Part shown: in pieces, positions 28,195-38,612 of the stretch
Layout of the letters: the number at the start of each line of letters is the position of its first letter
Position numbering within the stretch: position 1 is the stretch's first letter
Origin: Gammaproteobacteria bacterium
Lineage (GTDB): Bacteria; Pseudomonadota; Gammaproteobacteria; Natronospirales; JAJUFS01
Length of the DNA stretch: 64,000 nucleotides
Reading direction: 5' to 3'
Assembly (NCBI GenBank): GCA_029263725.1
Contig: JAJUFS010000001.1
Span: 19,439-83,438, forward strand
Notes under the pieces: model-generated
What the model was told of the DNA's origin: nothing
Databases searched by the model: none
What the model saw: only the letters and a program-made list of their open reading frames with translations
Translations under genes and position numbers: made by a program

Positions 28195-28971
28195 TCAGGC
28201 TGGCGCCGCCATGCCTTCGATGATGAGTTCCTCGCGGTGCGCCGCGCGCAGGCGGTGCAGCAGCTTGTCCGCGGCATGGAACATGCCGTTGAGGTCGCGC
28301 GGGGCGGGCGAGGCGGTGACCGCGCCGATGCGCGCGTGCACGCGCCGCGCGTCCAGCGCGAGGCGGACCTTCTCCAGGGCCACGTGCGCCGCCGCCTGGC
28401 CGGTCTCGGGCAGAAGGATCGCGAATTCGCCGGCTTCCAGCCGTCCCGCCACATCGCTGATGCGCAGGCTGTCGGCGAGCACTTCGGCGACCTGGCGACA
28501 TTGACCGTCCTGGTCGGCGTCGAGGGTGAGATAGGCCAGCGTGACCGGCTCGCCATTGCGATGGCAGACCGCCAGCACCGAGCCGGCGCGCTCGAAGAAG
28601 CCGTGGCGGCTCGCCAGCCCGGTTTCCTCGTCGACCGCGGCGAGTTCGTGGGCGGTTTCGCGGTTCACGTGCAGCCAGCGCGCCAGCAGGGTGACCACCA
28701 CGAACAGCGCGCCCTGCAGCAGCAGGTTGGTCAGCCAGCTGGCCGGCTCGAAGTAGGGACTGCCGGCCTCCAGCGAGACCATGGCCCACAGGCCGGCGGC
28801 GAGCACCGCGGCGATGATCGCGGTGGTGCGCTCCAGGTACCAGCCCGCGAAGATCAGCGGCACGAAGTACAGCGGCCCGGCGTACATGGCGAAGCGGCCG
28901 TAGTGGTCGATGGCGGCCGCGGCCAGGATGCCCGCGAACACCAGCAGCATGATCAGGAAGCGGTTGTTCAT
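28195..28971 (-). CDS. membrane GGDEF-domain protein with a degenerate active site (EAGEF) and a retained RxxD I-site
   Basis: About four N-terminal TM helices. DEETGLASRHGFF matches D.LTGL.NRR.F. RISDVAGRLEAGEFAILLP aligns with RxxD-x5-GGDEF. The FK.iND..GH..GD segment is shortened to LDADQDGQ. Confidence 0.8.
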   Translation of the reverse strand: MNNRFLIMLLVFAGILAAAAIDHYGRFAMYAGPLYFVPLIFAGWYLERTTAIIAAVLAAGLWAMVSLEAGSPYFEPASWLTNLLLQGALFVVVTLLARWLHVNRETAHELAAVDEETGLASRHGFFERAGSVLAVCHRNGEPVTLAYLTLDADQDGQCRQVAEVLADSLRISDVAGRLEAGEFAILLPETGQAAAHVALEKVRLALDARRVHARIGAVTASPAPRDLNGMFHAADKLLHRLRAAHREELIIEGMAAPA

Positions 28972-28977
28972 GAATGT

Positions 28978-29026
28978 CCTCCCCGCACCGTTCCGGTTTC
29001 CGGAAACGGTATTACACGCGGGGAGG
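28978..29026 (-). promoter_or_regulatory. hairpin sequestering the Shine-Dalgarno of the GGDEF gene
   Basis: Minus-strand RNA reads CCUCCCCGC-(31 nt containing the palindrome GTTTCCGGAAAC)-GCGGGGAGG-acauuc-AUG. The GGAGG lies in the 3' arm. Confidence 0.45.
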
Positions 29027-29070
29027 ACGGGCTGTGCGGATGATTGCGTAGGGGATGCAACCGAGTCCGC

Positions 29071-29400
29071 TCACATGGCGATGCAGGCGGTCCAGAGCTC
29101 GTCGGTGAACAGCAGGCGCGTCGTGCCGCAGATGCGGACGTGGTTCATGGTGCAGGCATCGCCGTCCTCGTCGACGATCTTGACGTCGTAGTTGCCGCAG
29201 GGAATGTTCTGCAGCGTCAGCTTGCTGCTGCTTTCCAGCGTGTCGTCGGCGAGCTGGTCGTCGCCCCACTCCGAGTCGGAGGTGGACGAGACGTAGAGGT
29301 ACCAGAAGTCCCAGCTGCTGCCGTTGTGAATGACGAGGTCGGCGGCATGGGCGGTGAGCGGCAGCATGCCCGCAGCCAGCAGGATGATCAGGCGTTTCAT
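29071..29400 (-). CDS. small secreted four-cysteine protein (109 aa), unknown function
   Basis: Signal peptide MKRLIILLAAGMLPLTAHA. The mature part has four Cys (CGNYDVKIVDEDGDAC, RICG, TAC). G/C-rich third-position codon usage matches neighbouring genes. Confidence 0.6.
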   Translation of the reverse strand: MKRLIILLAAGMLPLTAHAADLVIHNGSSWDFWYLYVSSTSDSEWGDDQLADDTLESSSKLTLQNIPCGNYDVKIVDEDGDACTMNHVRICGTTRLLFTDELWTACIAM

Positions 29401-29567
29401 GTAAGTCCCCCCGGTGAAGATGGCCGGGAAGCGCCCGGCCGCAACGATACGAAGCTTTGCCGATGGGGAAGGGGCTGGCAAGCGTTCGGGCGGCAAACGG
29501 CGTGGAACGGCGAGTTTTTGGGGTGGCGCGTTTCACAAGCGGCATCGGCCCCCACGCAGACCGGGGC

Positions 29568-29592
29568 AAAAAAACCCCGCCTTTCGGCGGGG
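29568..29592 (-). terminator. intrinsic terminator after the lipoprotein gene
   Basis: Minus strand reads CCCCGCC-gaaa-GGCGGGG followed by UUUUUUU. It lies 54 nt after the stop at 29646. Confidence 0.8.
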
Positions 29593-29645
29593 CAAGCTCC
29601 ACTCGCGATGGAGACTGGCAGGAGGTTGTTGTTGTCCGGCGTGCC

Positions 29646-31139
29646 TTACAGGGCCGGCACGGTGTCTGCGGGCAGTTCGATCATGTAGGTGTCGACGTTG
29701 TCGTCGTTGCCCGAGTTCCAGTTCGAGTTGAACAGCACCTTGGTGAAGTCGCGGTTCACCGCCGCGTGCGGCTCGGAGAAGTAGTCGCCGCCCTTGTTGT
29801 AGGTGTGCGCCAGGTTGAGGATGCGCGGGTTCGGCTTCAGTTCCACCGCCATCACCTTGTTGGCGTACCAGCCGCTGCCGGCAACTTTCTCCTTGTAGGT
29901 CGAGATCAGCACCCAGCCCGGCTTGTAGAAGTTGCGCGCCGAGAGATGCATGGCGGTGGAGTTGCCGCCGGTGTAGATCTGCCACAGGTTGGTGGACTGG
30001 CCGTTGGCGAGGTCCCACATCCGCACCCAGCCGGAGTCGTAGTCGCCGGCGATCACCACGTCGCGGCCGTCGGCGTCCAGGCCCAGGTCGGAGTGCGGGC
30101 TCTTCGGCGCAAGACCGATGGCGAAGTTGAAGTCGCGCGAGAAGGACATCATGCCGCAGGGCTTGCTGCGCGTGCCGAGCGAGCCGCCCGAGCAGGCCGG
30201 CGAGCTCCAGGAGGGCACCACGTACTCGCCCGTCGCGCTGATGCTGATGTGATCCGGCGCCGGCACGCCGCCGCCGTCCTTCGCGAAGTCATACACGCCG
30301 GCGATCTCGTCCTTGAGCATGTCGTAGGAAATCATGCCAAGGCCCTTGTTGTTCGAATCCAGCACCACCAGGCCCCACCAGCGCGCGTCCATGGACGGCG
30401 AGCCTTCGGTCTTGGTCGAGACCTTGGCGGCGGACGGCCAGATCTGCTTGATGCTGGTGGCATCATGCCCCGCGATCTTCTGCACGCGGGTGAAGTCGGT
30501 CACCACGTTCTTCTCGCCGGTGGCGACGTTGTACTCGGTGATGGTCATGCCGCCGCCGTTCGGGATCACGTACATGACGTCCGGGTGCGTCGGATGCCAC
30601 TGCGGTTCGACGCCGGCGCCGTTGAGGTCGAGCTTCTTGATGAGCTTCAGCGTCTGGGTGTCGTACAGGTACCAGGACTGGCCGCGCGAATAGACGATGA
30701 AGCGCGAGTCGTCCGCGTTGAACGGCTGGCGGCGCGCATAGTCGTTGCGCGCGAAGCCGGACAGGCCTTCGGCGTCGGCATCGGTGGCGCGCACGATGCA
30801 GGAGCCGTAGACCGGATCGTTGTAGGGCTTGCCCTTGGCGGGCTTGGCGAAGCCGGAAAGCGGCTTGCTCGCATCCTGGCCTTCGACCAGCGCGAAGCTG
30901 CCGCTGTAGGTCGCGGCACAGGGGCCGGACTTGAAGCTGATGGCTTCGAGGCCGTCATCCGAACCCGGATCGGTCGTGGTCGGCGGCGCGCTGTCCGCGG
31001 GCACTTCGACCGCCGGGGGCGGGTTCGCGCCGGAAGGCGCGGTGTCCGGGGCGCTACCGCCGCCACCGCCACCGCCGCCGCAGCCGGCAATGAGAAGGCC
31101 AAGAGGGAGGATCATCTTTGCGAGGTTGGAGTTCCACAT
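29646..31139 (-). CDS. beta-propeller-like lipoprotein of unknown function, downstream of tandem c-di-GMP riboswitches
   Basis: AGGUGA lies 7 nt before the ATG at 31139. Lipobox LLIAGC is followed by Gly8 and a Pro/Ala/Thr-rich linker. The remaining roughly 400 aa is W/Y/G-rich and resembles TolB/DPP-IV-like propeller repeats. Confidence 0.75.
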   Translation of the reverse strand: MWNSNLAKMILPLGLLIAGCGGGGGGGGSAPDTAPSGANPPPAVEVPADSAPPTTTDPGSDDGLEAISFKSGPCAATYSGSFALVEGQDASKPLSGFAKPAKGKPYNDPVYGSCIVRATDADAEGLSGFARNDYARRQPFNADDSRFIVYSRGQSWYLYDTQTLKLIKKLDLNGAGVEPQWHPTHPDVMYVIPNGGGMTITEYNVATGEKNVVTDFTRVQKIAGHDATSIKQIWPSAAKVSTKTEGSPSMDARWWGLVVLDSNNKGLGMISYDMLKDEIAGVYDFAKDGGGVPAPDHISISATGEYVVPSWSSPACSGGSLGTRSKPCGMMSFSRDFNFAIGLAPKSPHSDLGLDADGRDVVIAGDYDSGWVRMWDLANGQSTNLWQIYTGGNSTAMHLSARNFYKPGWVLISTYKEKVAGSGWYANKVMAVELKPNPRILNLAHTYNKGGDYFSEPHAAVNRDFTKVLFNSNWNSGNDDNVDTYMIELPADTVPAL

Positions 31140-31257
31140 TGTCTGATCACCTGAATCTCGTTTGCGAGTGGAACCGGCCCGCAGCGCCCGAAGGCGGGGT
31201 TCAGGGATCGATCAGGAACGCGGAGATCGTTGCTGGCCGCTGCCATGGCTGGCGGCG

Positions 31258-31329
31258 GGCAACCCCGCTGTCCTGGGCAATGCCCTTCGGACCGGTGGCT
31301 TTGCGTCCCCGCCTCTCGACGGGTTTGCC
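31258..31329 (-). promoter_or_regulatory. c-di-GMP-I (GEMM-I) riboswitch aptamer, gene-proximal copy
   Basis: Minus-strand RNA is GGCAAACCCGUCGAGAGGCGGGGACGCAAAGCCACCGGUCCGAAGGGCAUUGCCCAGGACAGCGGGGUUGCC. It matches the Vc2-type core GGCAAACC..(GNRA hairpin)..GACGCAAAGCC.CCGG...AGCGGGGUU.CC. Confidence 0.85.
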
Positions 31330-31436
31330 TTTTCGCGACTGGCGCGCACACGAATGCCGCGCCGGGCGCACGCTTCCTTGCGTGTTCTCTTGACCGGCGC
31401 GGTGAGTGACAGGTGAAGGTCTGACCGGCTTGGCCG

Positions 31437-31499
31437 GGCAACCCCGCTGTCCGCTTCCGGACCGGTGGCTTTGCGTCCCCGCCTCTCGACGGGTTTGCC
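31437..31499 (-). promoter_or_regulatory. c-di-GMP-I (GEMM-I) riboswitch aptamer, distal copy
   Basis: Minus-strand RNA is GGCAAACCCGUCGAGAGGCGGGGACGCAAAGCCACCGGUCCGGAAGCGGACAGCGGGGUUGCC. A 40-nt stretch is identical to the proximal copy; only the P2 tip differs. Confidence 0.85.
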
Positions 31500-31639
31500 T
31501 TTGCTGCCTGTCGCGTCCTGCGAGCGGTGCGTCCCTTGCTTCAGACGGGGGCGATCTTAGGGATCGGGGGGAGGGTCAACGGTGACGGGGGTCACGTTTC
31601 GGGCCGAGCCAGGCTGGAAAAATCCTTTAATAACAATAA

Positions 31640-31669
31640 GTTATGAAGATTACCCTCAGAACGTGAGGG
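31640..31669 (-). terminator. candidate terminator after the GT4 fusion gene, within an AT-rich spacer
   Basis: Minus strand reads CCCUCA-cguuc-UGAGGG followed by an A/U-rich run (uaaucuucauaacuuauuguuauuaaaggauuuuu). This is the only AT-rich patch in the locus and may also hold the riboswitch leader promoter. Confidence 0.4.
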
Positions 31670-31705
31670 GATTTCCCTCAGCGTACCGTAGGGCGCCGGC
31701 GACAG

Positions 31706-33949
31706 TCAGGCGGAAGCGCCCATCGCGCGGCGGGCGCGCTTGGCCAGCAGGTGGGCGTAGATGGCGAGTACCGACTCGGTGAAGCGGTCGATGGAGTGAT
31801 TGCGGGCGAAAGCGACGGCCGCCTCGGACATCTCCCGGCGCAGCGGCTCGCATTCCAGCAGCTCGCGCACCCGGCGGCACCAGGCGCGGCGATCCTCGGC
31901 GGTCTTGAAACCGGTGACGCCGTCGCGGATGACGTCGTCGATGCCGCTGGAGCGCACGGCGATGCAGGGCAGGCCCGCCGCCATGGCCTCGAGCAGCACC
32001 ATGCCCTGGGTTTCGGTCTTGGAGGCGAACAGGAACAAGTCGCCAAGGTGGTAATAGCGCGGGATCACCTCCGGCTTCACCGCGCCGGCGAGGATGATCA
32101 CCTCGGCAAGCCCAAGGTCGCCGATGCGCGCCTCGATGCGCCTGCGCTCCGGTCCGTCGCCGATGATCACGAAGCGGAATGGCTGGTGCAGCTCGCGTTT
32201 CAGCAGCGCGACCGCCTCCAGCAGGAAATCCAGGTTCTTCTCGCGGCTGAGGCGCGACACGGTGACCAGCACGCGCTCCTCGCCGATGCCGAGCTTGCCT
32301 TTCAGCGCCGCGACTGCTCCGGCGTCGACGCGGTTGAAGCGCTCGAACTCGATGCCGGTGGGCAGCACGAAGATGTCGGTCTTCACGCCGATCAGGCGCA
32401 GGTATTCCTCCGCGGAGTAGGTCGGCACGATCACGCCGTCGCACTTGTTGGAGAAGCGTCTCACCAGGTAGTGCGAGATCAGGTTGCGGAACAGCGGCCC
32501 CGGGATGCTTCTGACGAAATGCGCGTAGTGCTCAAGGCGCGTGTGATAGGTGTAGACCGCCGGCACGCCGAGGCGCCGCGCCCACAACAGTCCGAGGGAG
32601 CCGCACCAGATCGGGTGGTGGCAGTGGATGATGTCGGGGCGGAAGTCGCGGATGGCGCGGTGGACGCGCGGATGAAAGATGTTGGCGAGGCGGAACTCGC
32701 GCTTCTCGCCCCAGATGAACAGCGGCGGCAGGCGGCAGCTGCCATCGCGAGGCGCATCGCCGCGGTCGCGGCGGCGGTAGTCGGGCGCGACAACCAGCGT
32801 CTCGCGGCCCGCGGCGTCAAGGCCGCGGCGCAGGCGGTCGATGGAAATCGGCACGCCGCCGATGAACGGCAGGTAGTTGTTGGCGAACATCGCCACGCGT
32901 CGCACCTCGTCGAGCCAGGGCGCGCCGTCGACGTCGAAGCTCGGGTAATAGTCGCGGTCGGTGAAGATCAGCACGTACAGCTTGATGGCGATCAGCGTGA
33001 AGATGCTGACGATGAGCAGGAAGTTCAGGTAGCCGACGTAGAACAGCGAGTGGATGAACAGCCACAGGCCCTCCAGCGTGCGGAACACCGGATGCTGGCC
33101 GATGTCCAGCGGCTGGGCGGCGATGTCCACCCGCGCGCCGTCCACGCTGACCTTCACGTAGTGATAGAAGCTGTCGTCGTCGTTCATCACCAGGCCGCCG
33201 GCGCCGCCGGTGGTGACGTACTCCGTGCCGCCTTCGCTGTGGCGGGCGAACACCGGCAGGTTGGCGGAGAACACCGCGCGCACGCCATGGCGCGAAAACA
33301 GTTGAACGAGCCGTTCGCGCACTTCCTCGAAGGCGAAGTGATCCTCCGGCGAGGCGAACCAGTTGTCGCTGCCGCTTTCGAACAGCGGATGGCTCATGAA
33401 TACGAAGGCGTGCCGCTCGGTGCGTTCGCGCAGCTGTTCCTCCAGCCAGTGCAGCTGCCAGTCGAACGAGGTCTCGCCGGTGCTGTCGAGGAAGATGAAG
33501 CGGCTGTTGCCGGCGGTGAAGCTGAAGAAGTAGGGGCCGAAGCGGTCGTAATAGCGGAACGCGCCGAAGTTGCTCGCCTCGCGCGGCCCGAAGGTGAGCA
33601 GGCAGGGCACATCGAGATACCCGAGCGAGCCGCTCAGCGCGCGGTACTTGTCCTCGCCGCCGCCGCTCACCGCGTTGCCGGCTGACACCACGAAGTCCAC
33701 GCCGGAGGCGTTCAGCATCGGCAGTATCTTGCGCTCGAAGATGCCGATGGAATTGTTGATGTTGCCGACCACCGCGAAGCTGAACCGCTCCTTGCCCTCG
33801 AGCGAGGCCTCGATCTCGCGGATGGCGCGCGGGTGCATGGTCTCGTAGTCGCCGGCGAAGAAATTCAGATAGACCTTGTAGCCGACCAGCAGCAGCACGA
33901 TGGCCACGTTCAGCCAGAAGACGAGCTTGAGCCTCGCGCGCGCCGCCAT
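31706..33949 (-). CDS. fusion protein: N-terminal TM, degenerate metallophosphoesterase-like domain, TM segment, GT4-family glycosyltransferase
   Basis: C-terminal half has GT4 features (ANNYLPFIGGV, EX7E as ETQGMVLLEAMAAGLPCIA). N-terminal half has the calcineurin-like layout with motifs substituted: GNINN for DxH, AGNAV for GD, GPRE for GNHE. Confidence 0.8.
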   Translation of the reverse strand: MAARARLKLVFWLNVAIVLLLVGYKVYLNFFAGDYETMHPRAIREIEASLEGKERFSFAVVGNINNSIGIFERKILPMLNASGVDFVVSAGNAVSGGGEDKYRALSGSLGYLDVPCLLTFGPREASNFGAFRYYDRFGPYFFSFTAGNSRFIFLDSTGETSFDWQLHWLEEQLRERTERHAFVFMSHPLFESGSDNWFASPEDHFAFEEVRERLVQLFSRHGVRAVFSANLPVFARHSEGGTEYVTTGGAGGLVMNDDDSFYHYVKVSVDGARVDIAAQPLDIGQHPVFRTLEGLWLFIHSLFYVGYLNFLLIVSIFTLIAIKLYVLIFTDRDYYPSFDVDGAPWLDEVRRVAMFANNYLPFIGGVPISIDRLRRGLDAAGRETLVVAPDYRRRDRGDAPRDGSCRLPPLFIWGEKREFRLANIFHPRVHRAIRDFRPDIIHCHHPIWCGSLGLLWARRLGVPAVYTYHTRLEHYAHFVRSIPGPLFRNLISHYLVRRFSNKCDGVIVPTYSAEEYLRLIGVKTDIFVLPTGIEFERFNRVDAGAVAALKGKLGIGEERVLVTVSRLSREKNLDFLLEAVALLKRELHQPFRFVIIGDGPERRRIEARIGDLGLAEVIILAGAVKPEVIPRYYHLGDLFLFASKTETQGMVLLEAMAAGLPCIAVRSSGIDDVIRDGVTGFKTAEDRRAWCRRVRELLECEPLRREMSEAAVAFARNHSIDRFTESVLAIYAHLLAKRARRAMGASA

Positions 33950-33951
33950 GA

Positions 33952-35010
33952 TCAGCCCCGCGCGACTTCGCGATGGGTGATGACCGCGCCGATGAGCATG
34001 CCGAGATGCGCGCTCAGGAAGCGCCAGACGACCACCACCAGCAGCAGGTGCGAGGCCTGGGCGAGGTCGGCGAACAGGAAGCCGAACACGCCCTCGGCGA
34101 TACCGGCGGCGCCCGGCGTGGGCGAGAAGTACATGATGAAGGTCAGCACCGTCATCAGCCCGAGCACCAGGAACCAGTCGATCTCGTAGCCGAGTGCGAC
34201 CAGGATCAGCGCCGGGAAGGAGAACAGCGTCACCAGGTACAGCACGCTGTTGGCGAGGGACAGCAGCACGTTGCCCCAGCCGCCGCGGAAGTAGTCGCGG
34301 AAGCCGCGCGCGAAGTGCAGCAGCTCACGCTCGGCCGCGAAGCGCCAGTCACGGTGGCGGCGCGAGCTAATCATGCGCAGCCAGCGCATTCCCTTCAGCA
34401 GGCCGTGCGTCGGCGCCAGCAGCCATTGCGGCCGCAGCAGCGCGAAGCCGAAGAAGGCGAGATAGGCGAGCAGGATCAGCAGCAGGTAGAACAGGAACTG
34501 GCCGCGCAGCGGCACGTCCTGCAGCCGCGGGATGACGAGCAGCAGCACCGGGGTGGCGGCGAAGATCAGCACCATCACGATCATGGTGCGGATGGTGGTC
34601 GCGCTGGTGCCGGTGCCCACCGGCACGCCCAGCCTGCGCAGGTACCAGATCTGCGCGAAGCCGCCGCCGGTCACCAGCGGGGTGATGTTGGAGAAGAACA
34701 GGTTGATGAAGACCAGCTTGACCATTCCCGTGGGGGGAATGTCATGGCCCAGCGCCCTGAGGGTGTAGTGCAGCCGCGCGCCGTCGGTATACCAGTGCAG
34801 CAGCAGCAGGGCGGCCGCGGCGGCGAGAAAGCCGGGCTGCAGCAGCCGCCGGTCGAACACCAGGCCCTCGTTGGCCACGTCCCGGTAGACCACCGCCAGC
34901 CCGATCGCCGTCAGCGAGATGAAGATCAGCGCAAACAGCGGCAGGCGCCATCGCGGTCCTATGGGAGTGCTCTGGATCTCGTCGGGCATGGCGGCGTCTT
35001 GCAGGCGCAT
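33952..35010 (-). CDS. flippase-like membrane protein (lysylphosphatidylglycerol-synthase TM-region / UPF0104 family)
   Basis: About eight TM helices, FINLFFSNITPLVTGGGFAQIWYL motif typical of TIGR00374-like proteins. Its stop lies 2 nt before the start of the GT4 fusion gene. Confidence 0.7.
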   Translation of the reverse strand: MRLQDAAMPDEIQSTPIGPRWRLPLFALIFISLTAIGLAVVYRDVANEGLVFDRRLLQPGFLAAAAALLLLHWYTDGARLHYTLRALGHDIPPTGMVKLVFINLFFSNITPLVTGGGFAQIWYLRRLGVPVGTGTSATTIRTMIVMVLIFAATPVLLLVIPRLQDVPLRGQFLFYLLLILLAYLAFFGFALLRPQWLLAPTHGLLKGMRWLRMISSRRHRDWRFAAERELLHFARGFRDYFRGGWGNVLLSLANSVLYLVTLFSFPALILVALGYEIDWFLVLGLMTVLTFIMYFSPTPGAAGIAEGVFGFLFADLAQASHLLLVVVVWRFLSAHLGMLIGAVITHREVARG

Positions 35011-35113
35011 CAACGCGTGAAGGTAGCCCGCCGCCGCGGGTGGCGGAATATGTGAAGTCCTGTAGGAAAGCGGGCCGACAGGACAGGGATTTCCGTTTAC
35101 AATGCGCGGCCTC

Positions 35114-35190
35114 GCCCTCGTAGCTCAGCTGGATAGAGCGTCCCCCTCCTAAGGGGAAGGTCGCAGGTTCGACTCCTGCCGAGGGCGCCA
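35114..35190 (+). tRNA. tRNA-Arg (anticodon CCT)
   Basis: Cloverleaf folded by hand: acceptor GCCCTCG/CGAGGGC, D arm GCTC/GAGC, anticodon stem TCCCC/GGGGA with loop CTCCTAA, T arm GCAGG-TTCGACT-CCTGC, encoded CCA. Confidence 0.93.
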
Positions 35191-35747: not shown

Positions 35748-38612
35748 ATGAGCGACTCCTACGAACAGCAATTACGCGCCTCTCTTTTCTCGGGCGGCAA
35801 TGCCGCATATCTCGAAGAACTTTACGAACTTTTCCTGGAAGATCCGCAATCGATCGCGCCCGAGTGGCGCGAATTCTTTGCCGGTTTCCGGGCGGCGGGG
35901 GCGGCCGGCGGCGATGTGCCGCATGGGCCGATCATCGCGGAGTTCGAACGCCGTGCCCGCGAGCCGCGTCGTGCGGTCGCCGCGGGCGGCATGGACCCGG
36001 TGATGATCGAAAAGCAGGCCGCGGTCATGCGCCTCATCGAGGCCTATCGCACCCGCGGCCACCGCCACGCAAGGCTGGATCCGCTCGGGCTCGCGCCCCT
36101 GCCGAAGGAGCCGGACCTCGAGCTCGCCCATTACGGGCTGTCCGACGCGGACCTCGACACCGAGTTCAGCACGGTGTCGCTGACCGGCCCGGATCGCATG
36201 AAGCTGCGCGACATCCTCGCCATGCTGCGTTCCACCTATGCCGGCACCATCGGCTTCGAGTTCCAGCACATCTCCGTTTCCGAGGAGCGCGGCTGGCTGA
36301 AGGACCGCATCGAGACCTCGCGCGGGCGCATCGCGCTGTCCGCCGAGGAGCGCAAGCACCTGCTGGAGCAGCTCACCGCCGCCGAGGGCCTGGAGAAATA
36401 CCTCCACACCCGCTTCGTCGGCCAGAAGCGCTTCTCGCTGGAAGGCGGCGAGAGCTTCATCCCGCTCTTGAGCGACGTGATCCAGCAGGGCGGCGCTGCC
36501 GGCGTGCAGGAAATGGTCATCGGCATGGCGCACCGCGGCCGGCTGAACGTGCTCATCAACGTGCTCGGCAAGTCGCCGCGCGAGCTGTTCTCCGAGTTCG
36601 AGGGCGTCTATGACCCGAAGGTCACGGACCGCTCCGGCGACGTGAAGTACCACCTCGGTTTCTCGTCCGACATCAGCACCCCGGGCGGCAACGTGCATCT
36701 CGCGCTGGCGTTCAACCCGTCGCATCTCGAGATCGTCAACCCGGTGGTCGAAGGTTCGGTGCGCGCCCGCCAGGATCGCCGCGGCGACGTGCGCGGCGAC
36801 AAGGTCATGCCGATCCTGGTCCACGGCGACGCCGCGTTTGCCGGCCAGGGCGTGGTGATGGAGACGCTGCAGCTGTCGCAGGCGCGCGGCTTCTACACCG
36901 GCGGCACGGTGCACATCGTCATCAACAACCAGGTCGGCTTCACCATCAGCAACCCGGCCGACGCGCGCTCCACGCCGTACGCGACCGACGTCGCGAAGAT
37001 GCTGGAAGCGCCGATCCTGCACGTGAACGGCGACGATGCCGAGGCGGTGATCTTTGCCGCGCGGCTGGCGGTCGAGTACCGCATGAAGTTCCACAAGGAC
37101 ATCGTCATCGACCTCGTCTGCTATCGCCGCCACGGCCACAACGAGGCCGACGAGCCGTCCGCCACGCAGCCGGTGATGTACAAGATCATCAAGCAGCACA
37201 AGACCACGCGCGAGCTGTATGCCGAGAAGCTGCAGCAGGAAGGCGTCATCGCCGAAACCGATGCGCGCCGCATGGTCGAGAACTACCGGGCCGGGCTCGA
37301 CGAGGGCCGCACGGTGGCGCCGGCGGTGCTCGGCATGATCGGCAACGAATACACGGCCGACTGGTCGCGCTTCCAGCAGCACGCCATGGACGTGGAGGTC
37401 GATACCAGCATCGATGAGGCTCGCCTGCGCCGCCTCGGCGAGGCGATCACCACGGTGCCGGAAAACTTCCGCCTGCACGGCCGCGTGCAGAAGATCGTCG
37501 ATGACCGCCGCAAGATGCTTGCCGGCGAGCAGCCGATGGACTGGGGTTTCGCCGAGACCATGGCCTACGCGGCACTGATGAGCGACCGCTTCTCGGTGCG
37601 CCTGACCGGTCAGGACGCCGGCCGCGGCACCTTCTTCCACCGCCACGCGGTCTGGCACAACCAGGAAGACGCCTCCACCTACATTCCGCTGCAGTCGCTG
37701 GCGGATGGCCGGGTGCGTTTCACCGTGGTCGATTCGCTGCTGTCCGAGGAAGCCGTGGTCGGCTTCGAGTACGGCTATTCCACCGCCGATCCCGACGCGC
37801 TGGTCATCTGGGAAGCACAGTTCGGCGACTTCGCCAACGGCGCGCAGGTGGTGGTCGATCAGTTCATCAGCTCGGGCGAGGCCAAGTGGGGCCGTTACTG
37901 CGGCCTGGTGATGTTCCTGCCGCACGGCTACGAGGGCCAGGGTCCGGAGCATTCCTCCGCGCGCCTGGAGCGCTACCTGCAGCTGTGCGCCCAGCACAAC
38001 ATGCAGGTGTGCGTGCCGTCCACGCCCGCGCAGATGTTCCACATGCTGCGCCGGCAGATGATGCGCCCGCTGCGCAAGCCGCTCATCGTCATGACGCCGA
38101 AGAGCCTGCTGCGCCACAAGCTGTCCGTTTCGCCGCTGGAGGATCTCACCGGCGGACGCTTCCATCACATCATCCCCGAGATCGATGCGCTGGATGCGAA
38201 GAAGGTCAGCACGGTCGTGTTCTGCTCCGGCAAGGTGTACTACGACCTGCTGGAAGCGCGTCGCGCCGACGAGCGCAACGACGTCGCCATCATTCGCATC
38301 GAGCAGCTGTACCCGTTCCCCGAGAAGGAATACGAGGCGCAGCTCAGGAAGTATCCGAACGCGCGTGACATCGTCTGGTGCCAGGAAGAGCCGATGAACC
38401 AGGGCGCCTGGTACCAGATCCGGCATCGCCTGCAGCAGGGTCTCGGCAAGGACCACACGCTGCGCTACGCGGGCCGCGAGCATGCCGCCTCGACCGCGGC
38501 CGGCTACTTCCAGATGCACGTCGCCGAGCAGAAGGCGCTGATCGAGGATGCGCTGAACGGCGGCAACACGAACCACGGCAATCAGAGAAAAACAGGAACG
38601 GAGAAGGCATGA
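35748..38612 (+). CDS. sucA: 2-oxoglutarate dehydrogenase E1 component
   Basis: 954 aa, N-terminal [36 protein letters not shown] ThDP region. Confidence 0.97.

Follow-up and report, generated by a model that had tools for sequence, protein, structure and literature searches.

What kind of protein does a bacterium place behind two cyclic di-GMP (c-di-GMP) riboswitches arranged in series, and what might it do there? The question is raised by a 64,000-nt stretch of gammaproteobacterial DNA (contig JAJUFS010000001.1 of assembly GCA_029263725.1), which we call the window and whose positions are used below unless the identifier of a related locus (L0xx) is given; features lie on the minus strand unless marked otherwise. 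Two aptamers of the class I c-di-GMP type here precede a single open reading frame (ORF) of 497 amino acids (29646..31139), referred to as the cargo. The regulatory arrangement is of a known kind, with tandem class-I c-di-GMP riboswitches ahead of an extracytoplasmic protein, and the new part is the cargo itself, which belongs to a large family with neither a Pfam or NCBIfam model nor a characterised relative. On its modelled structure, the cargo is most aptly called a seven-bladed β-propeller of the PD40 type whose fold resembles that of PL22.

We propose that the cargo is a tethered, extracytoplasmic, glycan-acting propeller, controlled by a c-di-GMP riboswitch and acting on the exopolysaccharide of its own cell, an overall explanation for which we see the balance as about even. 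It is a good lead for a sugar-polymer-processing enzyme, and one that is useful, solid and unsurprising.

The cargo family and its predicted fold

Gene calls on 22 or more public contigs, a deposited metagenome-assembled genome included, yield a protein identical to the cargo and the same neighbours around it, and a word-indexed search recovers 425 homologs at E ≤ 1e-3; the gene can therefore be taken as real. An exhaustive profile search widens the family to 3558 clusters (50% identity) at E ≤ 1e-3 and 710 at E ≤ 1e-30, the best 150 hits, which are those listed, all being strong and offering no bridge to PL22. Species-representative genomes hold 232 stretches that encode a relative; the alignment and neighbour analyses cover 78 loci, including 52 of at least 10 kb. 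The closest relatives (54-62% identity) come from uncultured Gammaproteobacteria, and the others mainly from Lysobacterales, Burkholderiales and Myxococcota, with a few from Actinomycetota, Holophagae and Nitrospiria. Seven further close orthologs were obtained by exact-protein look-up, and a metagenome scan with the single protein returned one weak, irrelevant locus. The family is thus neither rare nor orphan: it is large, unnamed and often found beside exopolysaccharide genes.

AlphaFold2, run on the 78-sequence alignment, gave a model with a pLDDT of 87.6 and a pTM of 0.84, in which residues 69-497 (29649..30935) are predicted to form about 27 strands, consistent with seven four-stranded blades, at a core pLDDT mostly above 90. 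When this model was compared with the PDB using Foldseek, the top three matches were PL22 oligogalacturonate lyases (3pe7, 3c5m), with an E-value of 1.5e-13, a probability of 1.0 and about 430 aligned columns at 12-13% sequence identity, the TM score being 0.51 when normalised to the query and 0.65 when normalised to the target. Generic WD40 propellers came next, at query-normalised TM scores of 0.43 or less, and the structural matches also included an archaeal S-layer YVTN propeller alongside the WD40 proteins.

At the level of sequence the propeller core stands apart. Pfam gave nothing for the window protein at E ≤ 1 and left the core uncovered in all 78 members in a scan to E ≤ 10, NCBIfam had no match to it, and searches against PDB sequences, with the single sequence and with a profile, found nothing significant, the profile failing to recover 3pe7 or 3c5m. 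The sole signal in the profile search was a PD40-repeat-like match to TolB, at E ~0.2 and over one and a half blades, and with no PD40 Pfam match in the window protein or the 78 members we do not assign the cargo to TolB/PD40. It is likewise kept out of PL22, with which its modelled fold agrees, since neither Pfam nor the PDB profile search supports the relationship in sequence. The DPP-IV/prolyl oligopeptidase family, in which an alpha/beta-hydrolase catalytic domain comes after a propeller of eight or seven blades, was considered and rejected: the propeller forms the C-terminal end of the protein and leaves no hydrolase domain, no peptidase model of Pfam is matched, and DPP-IV is absent from the Foldseek top 50. 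The initial annotation of this DNA had seen a TolB/DPP-IV-like propeller of unknown function, in a family that it did not recognise as described, and had suggested a Foldseek comparison. The fold class, now with seven blades, the lack of a known function and the undescribed family all stand, whereas the best match is PL22, DPP-IV falls away and TolB survives as the faint repeat similarity above.

Conservation is striking at this degree of divergence. Across the 78 sequences, which are 42-65% identical to the window protein, 36 positions are invariant and about 58 nearly so, and the conserved positions are rich in His, Arg, Asp, Glu, Asn, Trp and Tyr. They include the motifs FARNDYxRRQxFNAD (129-143), EGxPSxDxR (245-253), PDHxSxS (295-301), HSD (349-351) and STY (413-415), together with E178, W181, H182, H398, S400, E456, NR (462-463) and NW (473-474). 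His297, His349 and His398 are invariant or nearly invariant, as are Arg117, Arg136 and Arg253, and H445 is invariant in a 15-sequence alignment; the four histidines (297, 349, 398 and 445) recur at a spacing of roughly one blade, at the place where PD40 repeats carry a WSPDG motif. What this pattern suggests to us is catalysis or the binding of a small ligand, more than contact with another protein. Two cysteines stand out, Cys114 as invariant and Cys74 as nearly so, and they would fit an oxidising compartment.

The N-terminus would direct the same protein out of the cytoplasm. Residues 1-19 (MWNSNLAKMILPLGLLIAG, 31083..31139) form a predicted signal peptide, with Lys8, a hydrophobic core and the lipobox I-A-G-C, and the segment reads MWNSNLAK-MILPLGLL-IAG-C20, that is, a charged n-region, a hydrophobic core and a lipobox of the form [LVI][ASTVI][GAS]C. 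The lipobox LLIAG-C of the initial annotation is present in the ORF translation, and Cys20 (31080..31082) is the predicted acylation site and mature N-terminus. The residue at +2 after Cys20 is Gly and not Asp, the residue that causes inner-membrane retention in lipoproteins of Escherichia coli. Eight Gly (residues 21-28, GGGGGGGG, 31056..31079) followed by Ser29 can be read directly from the DNA (tgc ggc ggc ggt ggc ggt ggc ggc ggt agc for Cys20, Gly21-28 and Ser29), as had been annotated, and the Pro/Ala/Thr-rich spacer noted after them is a linker of residues 29-68 (30936..31055) that aligns poorly among homologs. In the AlphaFold2 model residues 1-68 are disordered (pLDDT <50). The Gly run after the Cys measures 5-8 residues in the nine closest orthologs; in the family at large, a lipobox-like motif is present in 101 of 254 full-length members (~40%) and conserved in the close orthologs, and at least three Gly directly after the Cys occur in 34 of those 101, so that Gly8 reads as an ordinary linker of variable length and no special feature. 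The cargo would then leave the cytoplasm, receive its lipid at Cys20 and probably end up in the outer membrane, where a flexible tether of about 48 residues, made up of Gly8 and the Pro/Ala/Thr segment, would hold the seven-bladed propeller off the membrane.

In other members the linker is replaced by accessory modules, namely Ig-like (Big_5, Big_9, Big_7), fn3, cadherin-like, Calx-beta and PKD domains, and several long homologs carry right-handed β-helix domains, with DUF5123-type domains also found among the modular homologs. Secreted proteins that act on glycans or mediate adhesion are built in this modular way. The gene stands as two or three tandem paralogs in 22 of the 78 loci (18 of the 52 of at least 10 kb).

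These features also feed the strongest alternative, which we consider somewhat unlikely: that the propeller is a non-catalytic scaffold or adaptor of the TolB or BamB kind, or a surface adhesin, tethered to the outer membrane and organising exopolysaccharide export or matrix attachment through contacts with proteins or glycans. The PD40-like repeat similarity to TolB (E ~0.2), the label 'Tol biopolymer transport system component' that one source gives to a homolog, the many propellers that are scaffolds (with WD40 and the S-layer YVTN propeller among the structural matches), and the tandem paralogs and Ig-like or cadherin-like modules typical of adhesins would all suit it, and adhesins are frequent targets of c-di-GMP riboswitches (PMC9481103). 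It sits poorly, however, with polar and aromatic residues, His297, His349, His398 and His445 among them, that are very strongly conserved across phyla and look more like an active or small-ligand site than a protein interface, with an enzyme as the best structural match, and with the β-helix fusions of some homologs.

The one-gene cassette and its neighbours

Upstream of the cargo ATG the reading frame meets a stop before any other start codon, which makes a longer N-terminus impossible, and the gene ends with TAA (29646-29648). The Shine-Dalgarno (SD) sequence AGGUGA, noted earlier ahead of the AUG, is confirmed at 31147-31152, 7 nt before it, and is kept in 13 of 14 leaders, the exception being L002 with AGGUAA. 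Beyond the stop lies an intrinsic terminator, GCCCCGCC-GAAA-GGCGGGGU with a U7 tail (29568..29593), whose folding energy is -22 kcal/mol; terminators as strong number four on both strands of the window, as against ~0.05 per mononucleotide shuffle. The initial annotation was right about the placing of gene and terminator and slightly off in two distances, since the gene starts 114 nt, by Rfam coordinates, and not 119 nt after the proximal aptamer, and the terminator hairpin (29593..29568) begins 52 nt and not 54 nt past the stop.

Behind the propeller gene stands a strong hairpin with a U run, not only in the window but also in 11 of the 12 orthologs or paralogs whose downstream sequence is long enough, and the flanking genes differ from locus to locus (sucA and a tRNA, LexA, a second riboswitch-paralog unit, or genes on the opposite strand). 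In silico, the conserved unit is thus a cassette of aptamer(s), gene and terminator, a one-gene regulatory module, and because this cassette is conserved while its neighbours change we take the cargo unit to be monocistronic. The earlier description of a single, dedicated and self-terminated gene therefore holds in silico, and is supported more strongly by the ortholog loci than by the window alone. In a window of 66% G+C, an AT-rich island (ATCTTCATAACTTATTGTTATTAAAGGATTTTT, 31616-31650), possibly a promoter or an UP element, lies in the gap that separates the distal aptamer from the glycosyltransferase gene upstream of it.

When the neighbours of the family were clustered across the 78 loci and the recurrent clusters annotated, the commonest were a MurJ/Wzx-type flippase (18 loci), an Asn-synthase-like amidotransferase (17), a Wzy_C polymerase/ligase (15) and a GT4 glycosyltransferase (12, and the window), followed by a polysaccharide deacetylase, a DUF218 protein and an alpha/beta hydrolase (8 each), an epimerase (7) and a GT2 glycosyltransferase (5). 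At least one exopolysaccharide-type neighbour is present in 27 of the 52 loci that reach 10 kb, and two or more in 25. For five of ten neighbours tested, the best NCBIfam match was one of the exosortase-A/PEP-CTERM-associated families (amidotransferase, O-ligase-like, hydrolases 1 and 2, glycosyltransferase family stp2), in every case below the curated cut-off; the loci resemble the XrtA/PEP-CTERM type of exopolysaccharide locus in these matches, at scores short of what would assign them to it.

It is from the fold, the conservation pattern, the accessory domains and this genomic context that we derive the proposal of a trimming enzyme. In our judgement the propeller is most likely either an enzyme that acts on glycans in the manner of a lyase or hydrolase, or a protein that binds glycan tightly, and in both cases would trim or remodel exopolysaccharide made by the cell itself; in the window the polymer could come from the adjacent glycosyltransferase and flippase-like genes. 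The same fold match might instead indicate an enzyme that scavenges foreign poly- or oligosaccharides, such as pectin-type uronates, as nutrients and has nothing to do with the cell's own matrix. PL22 being the best match, and some homologs being modular with β-helix and DUF5123-type domains, which occur in pectate-lyase-type degraders, would suit such a role; we nevertheless think it quite improbable, as the annotated neighbour clusters are biosynthetic or housekeeping, with none for catabolism or transport, and c-di-GMP control suits genes of lifestyle and matrix better than those of catabolism.

The window itself offers a small version of this context. Upstream of the cargo, on the same strand, are two genes, one for an LPG_synthase_TM-type membrane protein and, after it, one for a fusion of a calcineurin-like metallophosphoesterase with GT4 (747 aa), together spanning 31706-35013. 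The best NCBIfam match of the 747-aa fusion is a monoglucosyl-diacylglycerol synthase, below the cut-off, and its gene belongs to the neighbour cluster found in 12 other loci; L089 (2161-4389) has the same three gene types, that is, a propeller, LPG_synthase_TM and a long downstream gene, in a different order. A tRNA (35114-35187) and sucA (35748-38612), both on the plus strand, flank the cassette in the window as they do in L001 and L004, and L003 has a comparable tRNA on its upstream side. What parts the tRNA from the riboswitch cassette in the window is an insertion of the LPG_synthase_TM and glycosyltransferase genes.

Downstream, directly past the cargo terminator, is a gene for a 109-aa signal-peptide protein (MKRLIILLAAGMLPLTAHA..., 29071-29400) with no Pfam or NCBIfam match; it is called in all public copies of the locus, and none was found downstream in the ortholog loci inspected. 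Two genes downstream of the cargo there is a membrane protein with a GGDEF domain (28195-28971), whose active-site motif is EAGEF rather than GG(D/E)EF and which has an RxxD (RISD) five residues upstream, as in inhibitory sites. It may serve as a receptor for c-di-GMP instead of as a cyclase. Near the propeller loci of related uncultured genomes, Rfam matches to sRNA-Xcc1 and int-alpA RNA were also seen (L004 10243-10329; L003 3364-3430).

Aptamers, leader and the direction of control

The distal aptamer (31433..31508) scores 61.6 bits (E 4e-12) with Rfam family RF03167, whose gathering score is 59, and 83.6 bits with R1, our own covariance model built from 14 aptamers; the proximal aptamer (31254..31338) scores 68.6 bits (E 4e-14) and 96.3 bits, respectively. 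Both reach the score that places them in the c-di-GMP-I clan (Rfam CL00126), and both also pass a second family of this clan. RF03167, which carries the label c-di-GMP-I-GGC, is the best model for the two window aptamers and for 11 of the 12 aptamers that Rfam detected in L001-L006, and the distal aptamer of L006 scores best as canonical RF01051 (79.6 bits). In the literature searched, the GGC variant turned up only in papers that give lists of Rfam names.

The roles of G20, A47 and C92 in the ligand pocket of the Vc2 aptamer have been described (PMC5888326; PMC11218506), and the equivalents of these nucleotides are G, A and C in 20 of 20 complete aptamers of the clade, including both in the window. 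The spacing between the G20 and A47 equivalents is 27 nt, as in Vc2 (20, 47) and Bc1 (G11, A38; PMC11218506). If the GGC signature is a G at the A47 equivalent, as the family name together with the Rfam consensus GACGC-G-AA leads us to read it, it is not found here: the consensus G of RF03167 sits 27 nt after the G that precedes GCAAACC, which is the A47 equivalent, and every aptamer here has an A at that place. By their sequence, then, these are canonical-pocket RNAs that resemble the variant seed overall, and the canonical G/A/C pocket makes c-di-GMP the likely ligand. That the aptamers belong to a ligand-variant class and the gene answers to some other molecule is very unlikely: both aptamers do score higher on RF03167 than on the other clan member passed, and the nucleotide before the C92 equivalent is G where Vc2 has A, but the constant A at the A47 equivalent, the intact G/A/C pocket, the canonical call for the L006 distal aptamer and a GGDEF-domain gene two genes downstream all point elsewhere. 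The case is also a caution for annotation, as the best-scoring Rfam model, that of a ligand-variant class, proves the wrong functional call once the pocket nucleotides are inspected.

Searched with Rfam and R1, the 78 genome loci have aptamers only in the six closest (three uncultured genomes), always upstream of a family member, and the seven further close orthologs have them in all seven cases; 13 of 13 related loci with upstream DNA thus carry one to three aptamers before a member of the family, and a single uncultured gammaproteobacterial clade is the only one with riboswitch control. The number of aptamers ranges from one (L005) to three in series (L091, 1759-2376), and an extra aptamer lies 3' of the propeller gene in L004 (7595-7684, where it precedes the next paralog) and probably in L092 (2406-2450), from which it follows that the clade has multiplied the aptamer-propeller cassette. 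The leaders of the clade offer a natural series of one, two and three aptamers before one gene family, well suited to a dose-response study of tandem c-di-GMP riboswitches. As a separate observation, five of seven short metagenome contigs (L086, L087, L088, L089 and L092) begin inside an aptamer; near-identical repeated aptamers probably break assemblies, leaving such loci under-represented or truncated in metagenomes.

The two stretches that follow the aptamers are candidate expression platforms. The inter-aptamer spacer (31339..31432), as platform of the distal aptamer, holds a small hairpin, a conserved CCGGUCAG, the anti-SD-like UCACCUG (31410-31416) and a long GC hairpin. A motif like GUGUGCGCG, at about 31345-31360, recurs in the distal-proximal spacers of L001-L004. 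In the proximal platform (31140..31253) a terminator scan found no intrinsic terminator, and it contains GGGCCGG (31174-31180), complementary to the 5' strand of aptamer helix P2, and GUUCCACUCGC (31164-31174), complementary to the SD and codons 1-3. RNAalifold, applied to alignments of 6 and of 11 orthologous leaders, returned conserved pairing of the P2 5' strand CCGGUCC with GG(A/G)CCGG some 100 nt downstream, and of GUUCCACUCGC, directly after GG(A/G)CCGG, with the GUGA of the SD and with GUGGAAC, that is, the last base of the AUG and codons 2-3; complementarity of the 3' half of the aptamer with CCGGUAAGCAACAAGCGCG is conserved as well.

Codons 1-3, AUG UGG AAC (Met-Trp-Asn, 31131-31139), are conserved at the nucleotide level and complementary to GUUCCAC in the leader, and the Met-Trp-Asn start is kept in the orthologs and in several paralogs with Ig-like domains while the rest of the signal peptide varies, which hints at selection on the RNA. 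Moreover, segments just 3' of each aptamer complement the ribosome-binding site of their own gene, over 10 bp in L004, 9 in L092, 8 in L091 and 7 in the window. A few differences between loci look compensatory, in the 10 bp of L004, in GUCACCUUC/GAAGGUGAC of L092 and in CCUGAAUC/GAUUCAGG of L091, and are suggestive of anti-SD segments that pair with their own ribosome-binding sites.

Because there is no terminator between the proximal aptamer and the AUG, and the pairings with the SD and first codons are conserved, control is probably translational. When the aptamer fold was enforced in ViennaRNA, the probability that the SD is unpaired fell in 9 of 11 leaders and was unchanged in 2, with a drop from 0.57 to 0.02 in the window leader, and the free ensemble was 0.7-8.3 kcal/mol more stable than that with the enforced aptamer. 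These calculations lean, weakly, towards c-di-GMP acting as an OFF signal. Ligand binding may re-partition two sets of pairings, one between the aptamer P2 strands and their complements in the leader and one between leader segments and the SD with the first three codons; c-di-GMP would then lower access to the SD, and the enzyme would be made at low c-di-GMP, for matrix remodelling or dispersal, with two or three serial aptamers possibly sharpening the response.

Several points weigh against the explanation as a whole. For the leader, the anti-SD duplexes are mostly only 1-3 standard deviations better than shuffles (z mostly -1 to -3), and only in 8 of 25 cases do they pair best with the cognate ribosome-binding site, in a test made low-powered by the many near-identical sites. 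The accessibility of the AUG shifts the opposite way in several leaders, which leaves the polarity signal weak, and the SD-occluding helix is conserved with almost no compensatory change and is degraded in L091, the leader helices in general being conserved without covarying. A scan of 28900-32000 for sigma-70 consensus elements found no promoter. Nor does a strong terminator lie between the leader and the glycosyltransferase gene upstream of it, so that read-through from that gene is possible. As to function, roughly one locus in two, with Acidovorax and Lautropia as examples, sits among unrelated housekeeping genes, and a gene resembling UDP-glucose dehydrogenase (Ugd-like) lies within 6 kb in only 2 loci, the flanks being short, which leaves a uronic-acid substrate for a lyase unsupported. 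Against the PL22-like fold match stands that PF14583, which we take to be the Pfam model of PL22 (Pectate_lyase22), is matched by none of the 78 members at E ≤ 10 and not by the window protein at E ≤ 1. PL22 enzymes are cytoplasmic, depend on Mn and act on breakdown products of pectin, which is a different setting, and the propeller could be a non-catalytic scaffold.

With these points in view we retain the glycan-acting propeller as our explanation at the strength given above. A bolder version appears unlikely to us, namely that the propeller is the founding member of a carbohydrate-active enzyme family not described before, made up of envelope-anchored lyases or hydrolases that remodel the cell's own exopolysaccharide and are widespread in Pseudomonadota and Myxococcota. 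In one uncultured gammaproteobacterial lineage each copy would stand under tandem c-di-GMP riboswitches working by mimicry, with high c-di-GMP as off and low c-di-GMP as dispersal. In that scheme the anti-SD strand would alternate between an SD-like stretch of the aptamer P2, CAGGACAG, and the real SD (CAGGUGA). The glycan-acting proposal is of value in itself as a first concrete functional hypothesis for an unnamed family of thousands of clusters, drawn from the three independent lines of fold, genomic context and second-messenger control. Should the cargo prove to be a matrix-remodelling enzyme, it would be a propeller-fold addition to the short list of enzymes found beside exopolysaccharide genes, and could serve as a tool or target for biofilm dispersal.

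Comparison with known systems

On the RNA side the closest relatives are the class I c-di-GMP (GEMM-I) riboswitches of the Vc2 type, which the aptamers here resemble in their above-threshold covariance matches, a first hairpin capped by a GNRA loop and a canonical pocket, as well as in their tandem arrays and extracytoplasmic cargo. Tandem arrays of c-di-GMP-I aptamers have been reported as 347 doublets and 12 triplets (PMC9481103). The difference lies in the platform, which here appears to be translational and built on long-range complements instead of a terminator. In the literature searched, the cargo family is nowhere described as a target of a c-di-GMP riboswitch.

Among proteins, the PL22 lyases 3pe7 (Yersinia) and 3c5m (Vibrio) share the seven-bladed propeller and head the Foldseek matches, but they do so at the low identity given above and with no Pfam lyase match, and the cargo, unlike them, is predicted to be exported and lipid-anchored and lies beside biosynthetic exopolysaccharide genes. 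The 3pe7 enzyme reportedly has a Mn site of His/His/His/Gln, a His base and an Arg neutraliser. Other glycan enzymes with seven-bladed propellers, the ulvan lyases of PL24 and PL25, PL42 and GH145, have His, Arg and Tyr catalytic residues centred on one face of the propeller (PMC8377490). The cargo is like them in general fold class and in having invariant His, Arg, Tyr and Trp in its family, and unlike them in that they are absent from the Foldseek top 50 and show no detected sequence relationship. The likeness to TolB consists of faint repeat similarity, EPQWHPT..PD in the cargo against EPTWFPDSQN in TolB (E ~0.2), and of a shared place among periplasm-facing envelope proteins; the sequence match falls short of significance, and TolB does not appear among the top structural matches. 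TolB is a six-bladed propeller behind an N-terminal alpha/beta domain, and is not a lipoprotein.

The nearest functional counterparts we can propose are AlgL, PslG, the hydrolase domain of PelA, and BcsZ, envelope enzymes of exopolysaccharide operons that trim or clear polymer and are built as alpha/alpha or TIM barrels. Literature searches gave no applicable propeller lyase or hydrolase from exopolysaccharide loci, and nothing of use on the active site of PL22. The cargo differs from these enzymes in its unrelated fold and in being linked to polysaccharide genes by genomic context only, as a riboswitch-controlled unit of its own rather than a member of an operon; by analogy, it would nonetheless share with them the role of an envelope enzyme tied to a matrix polysaccharide under c-di-GMP control.

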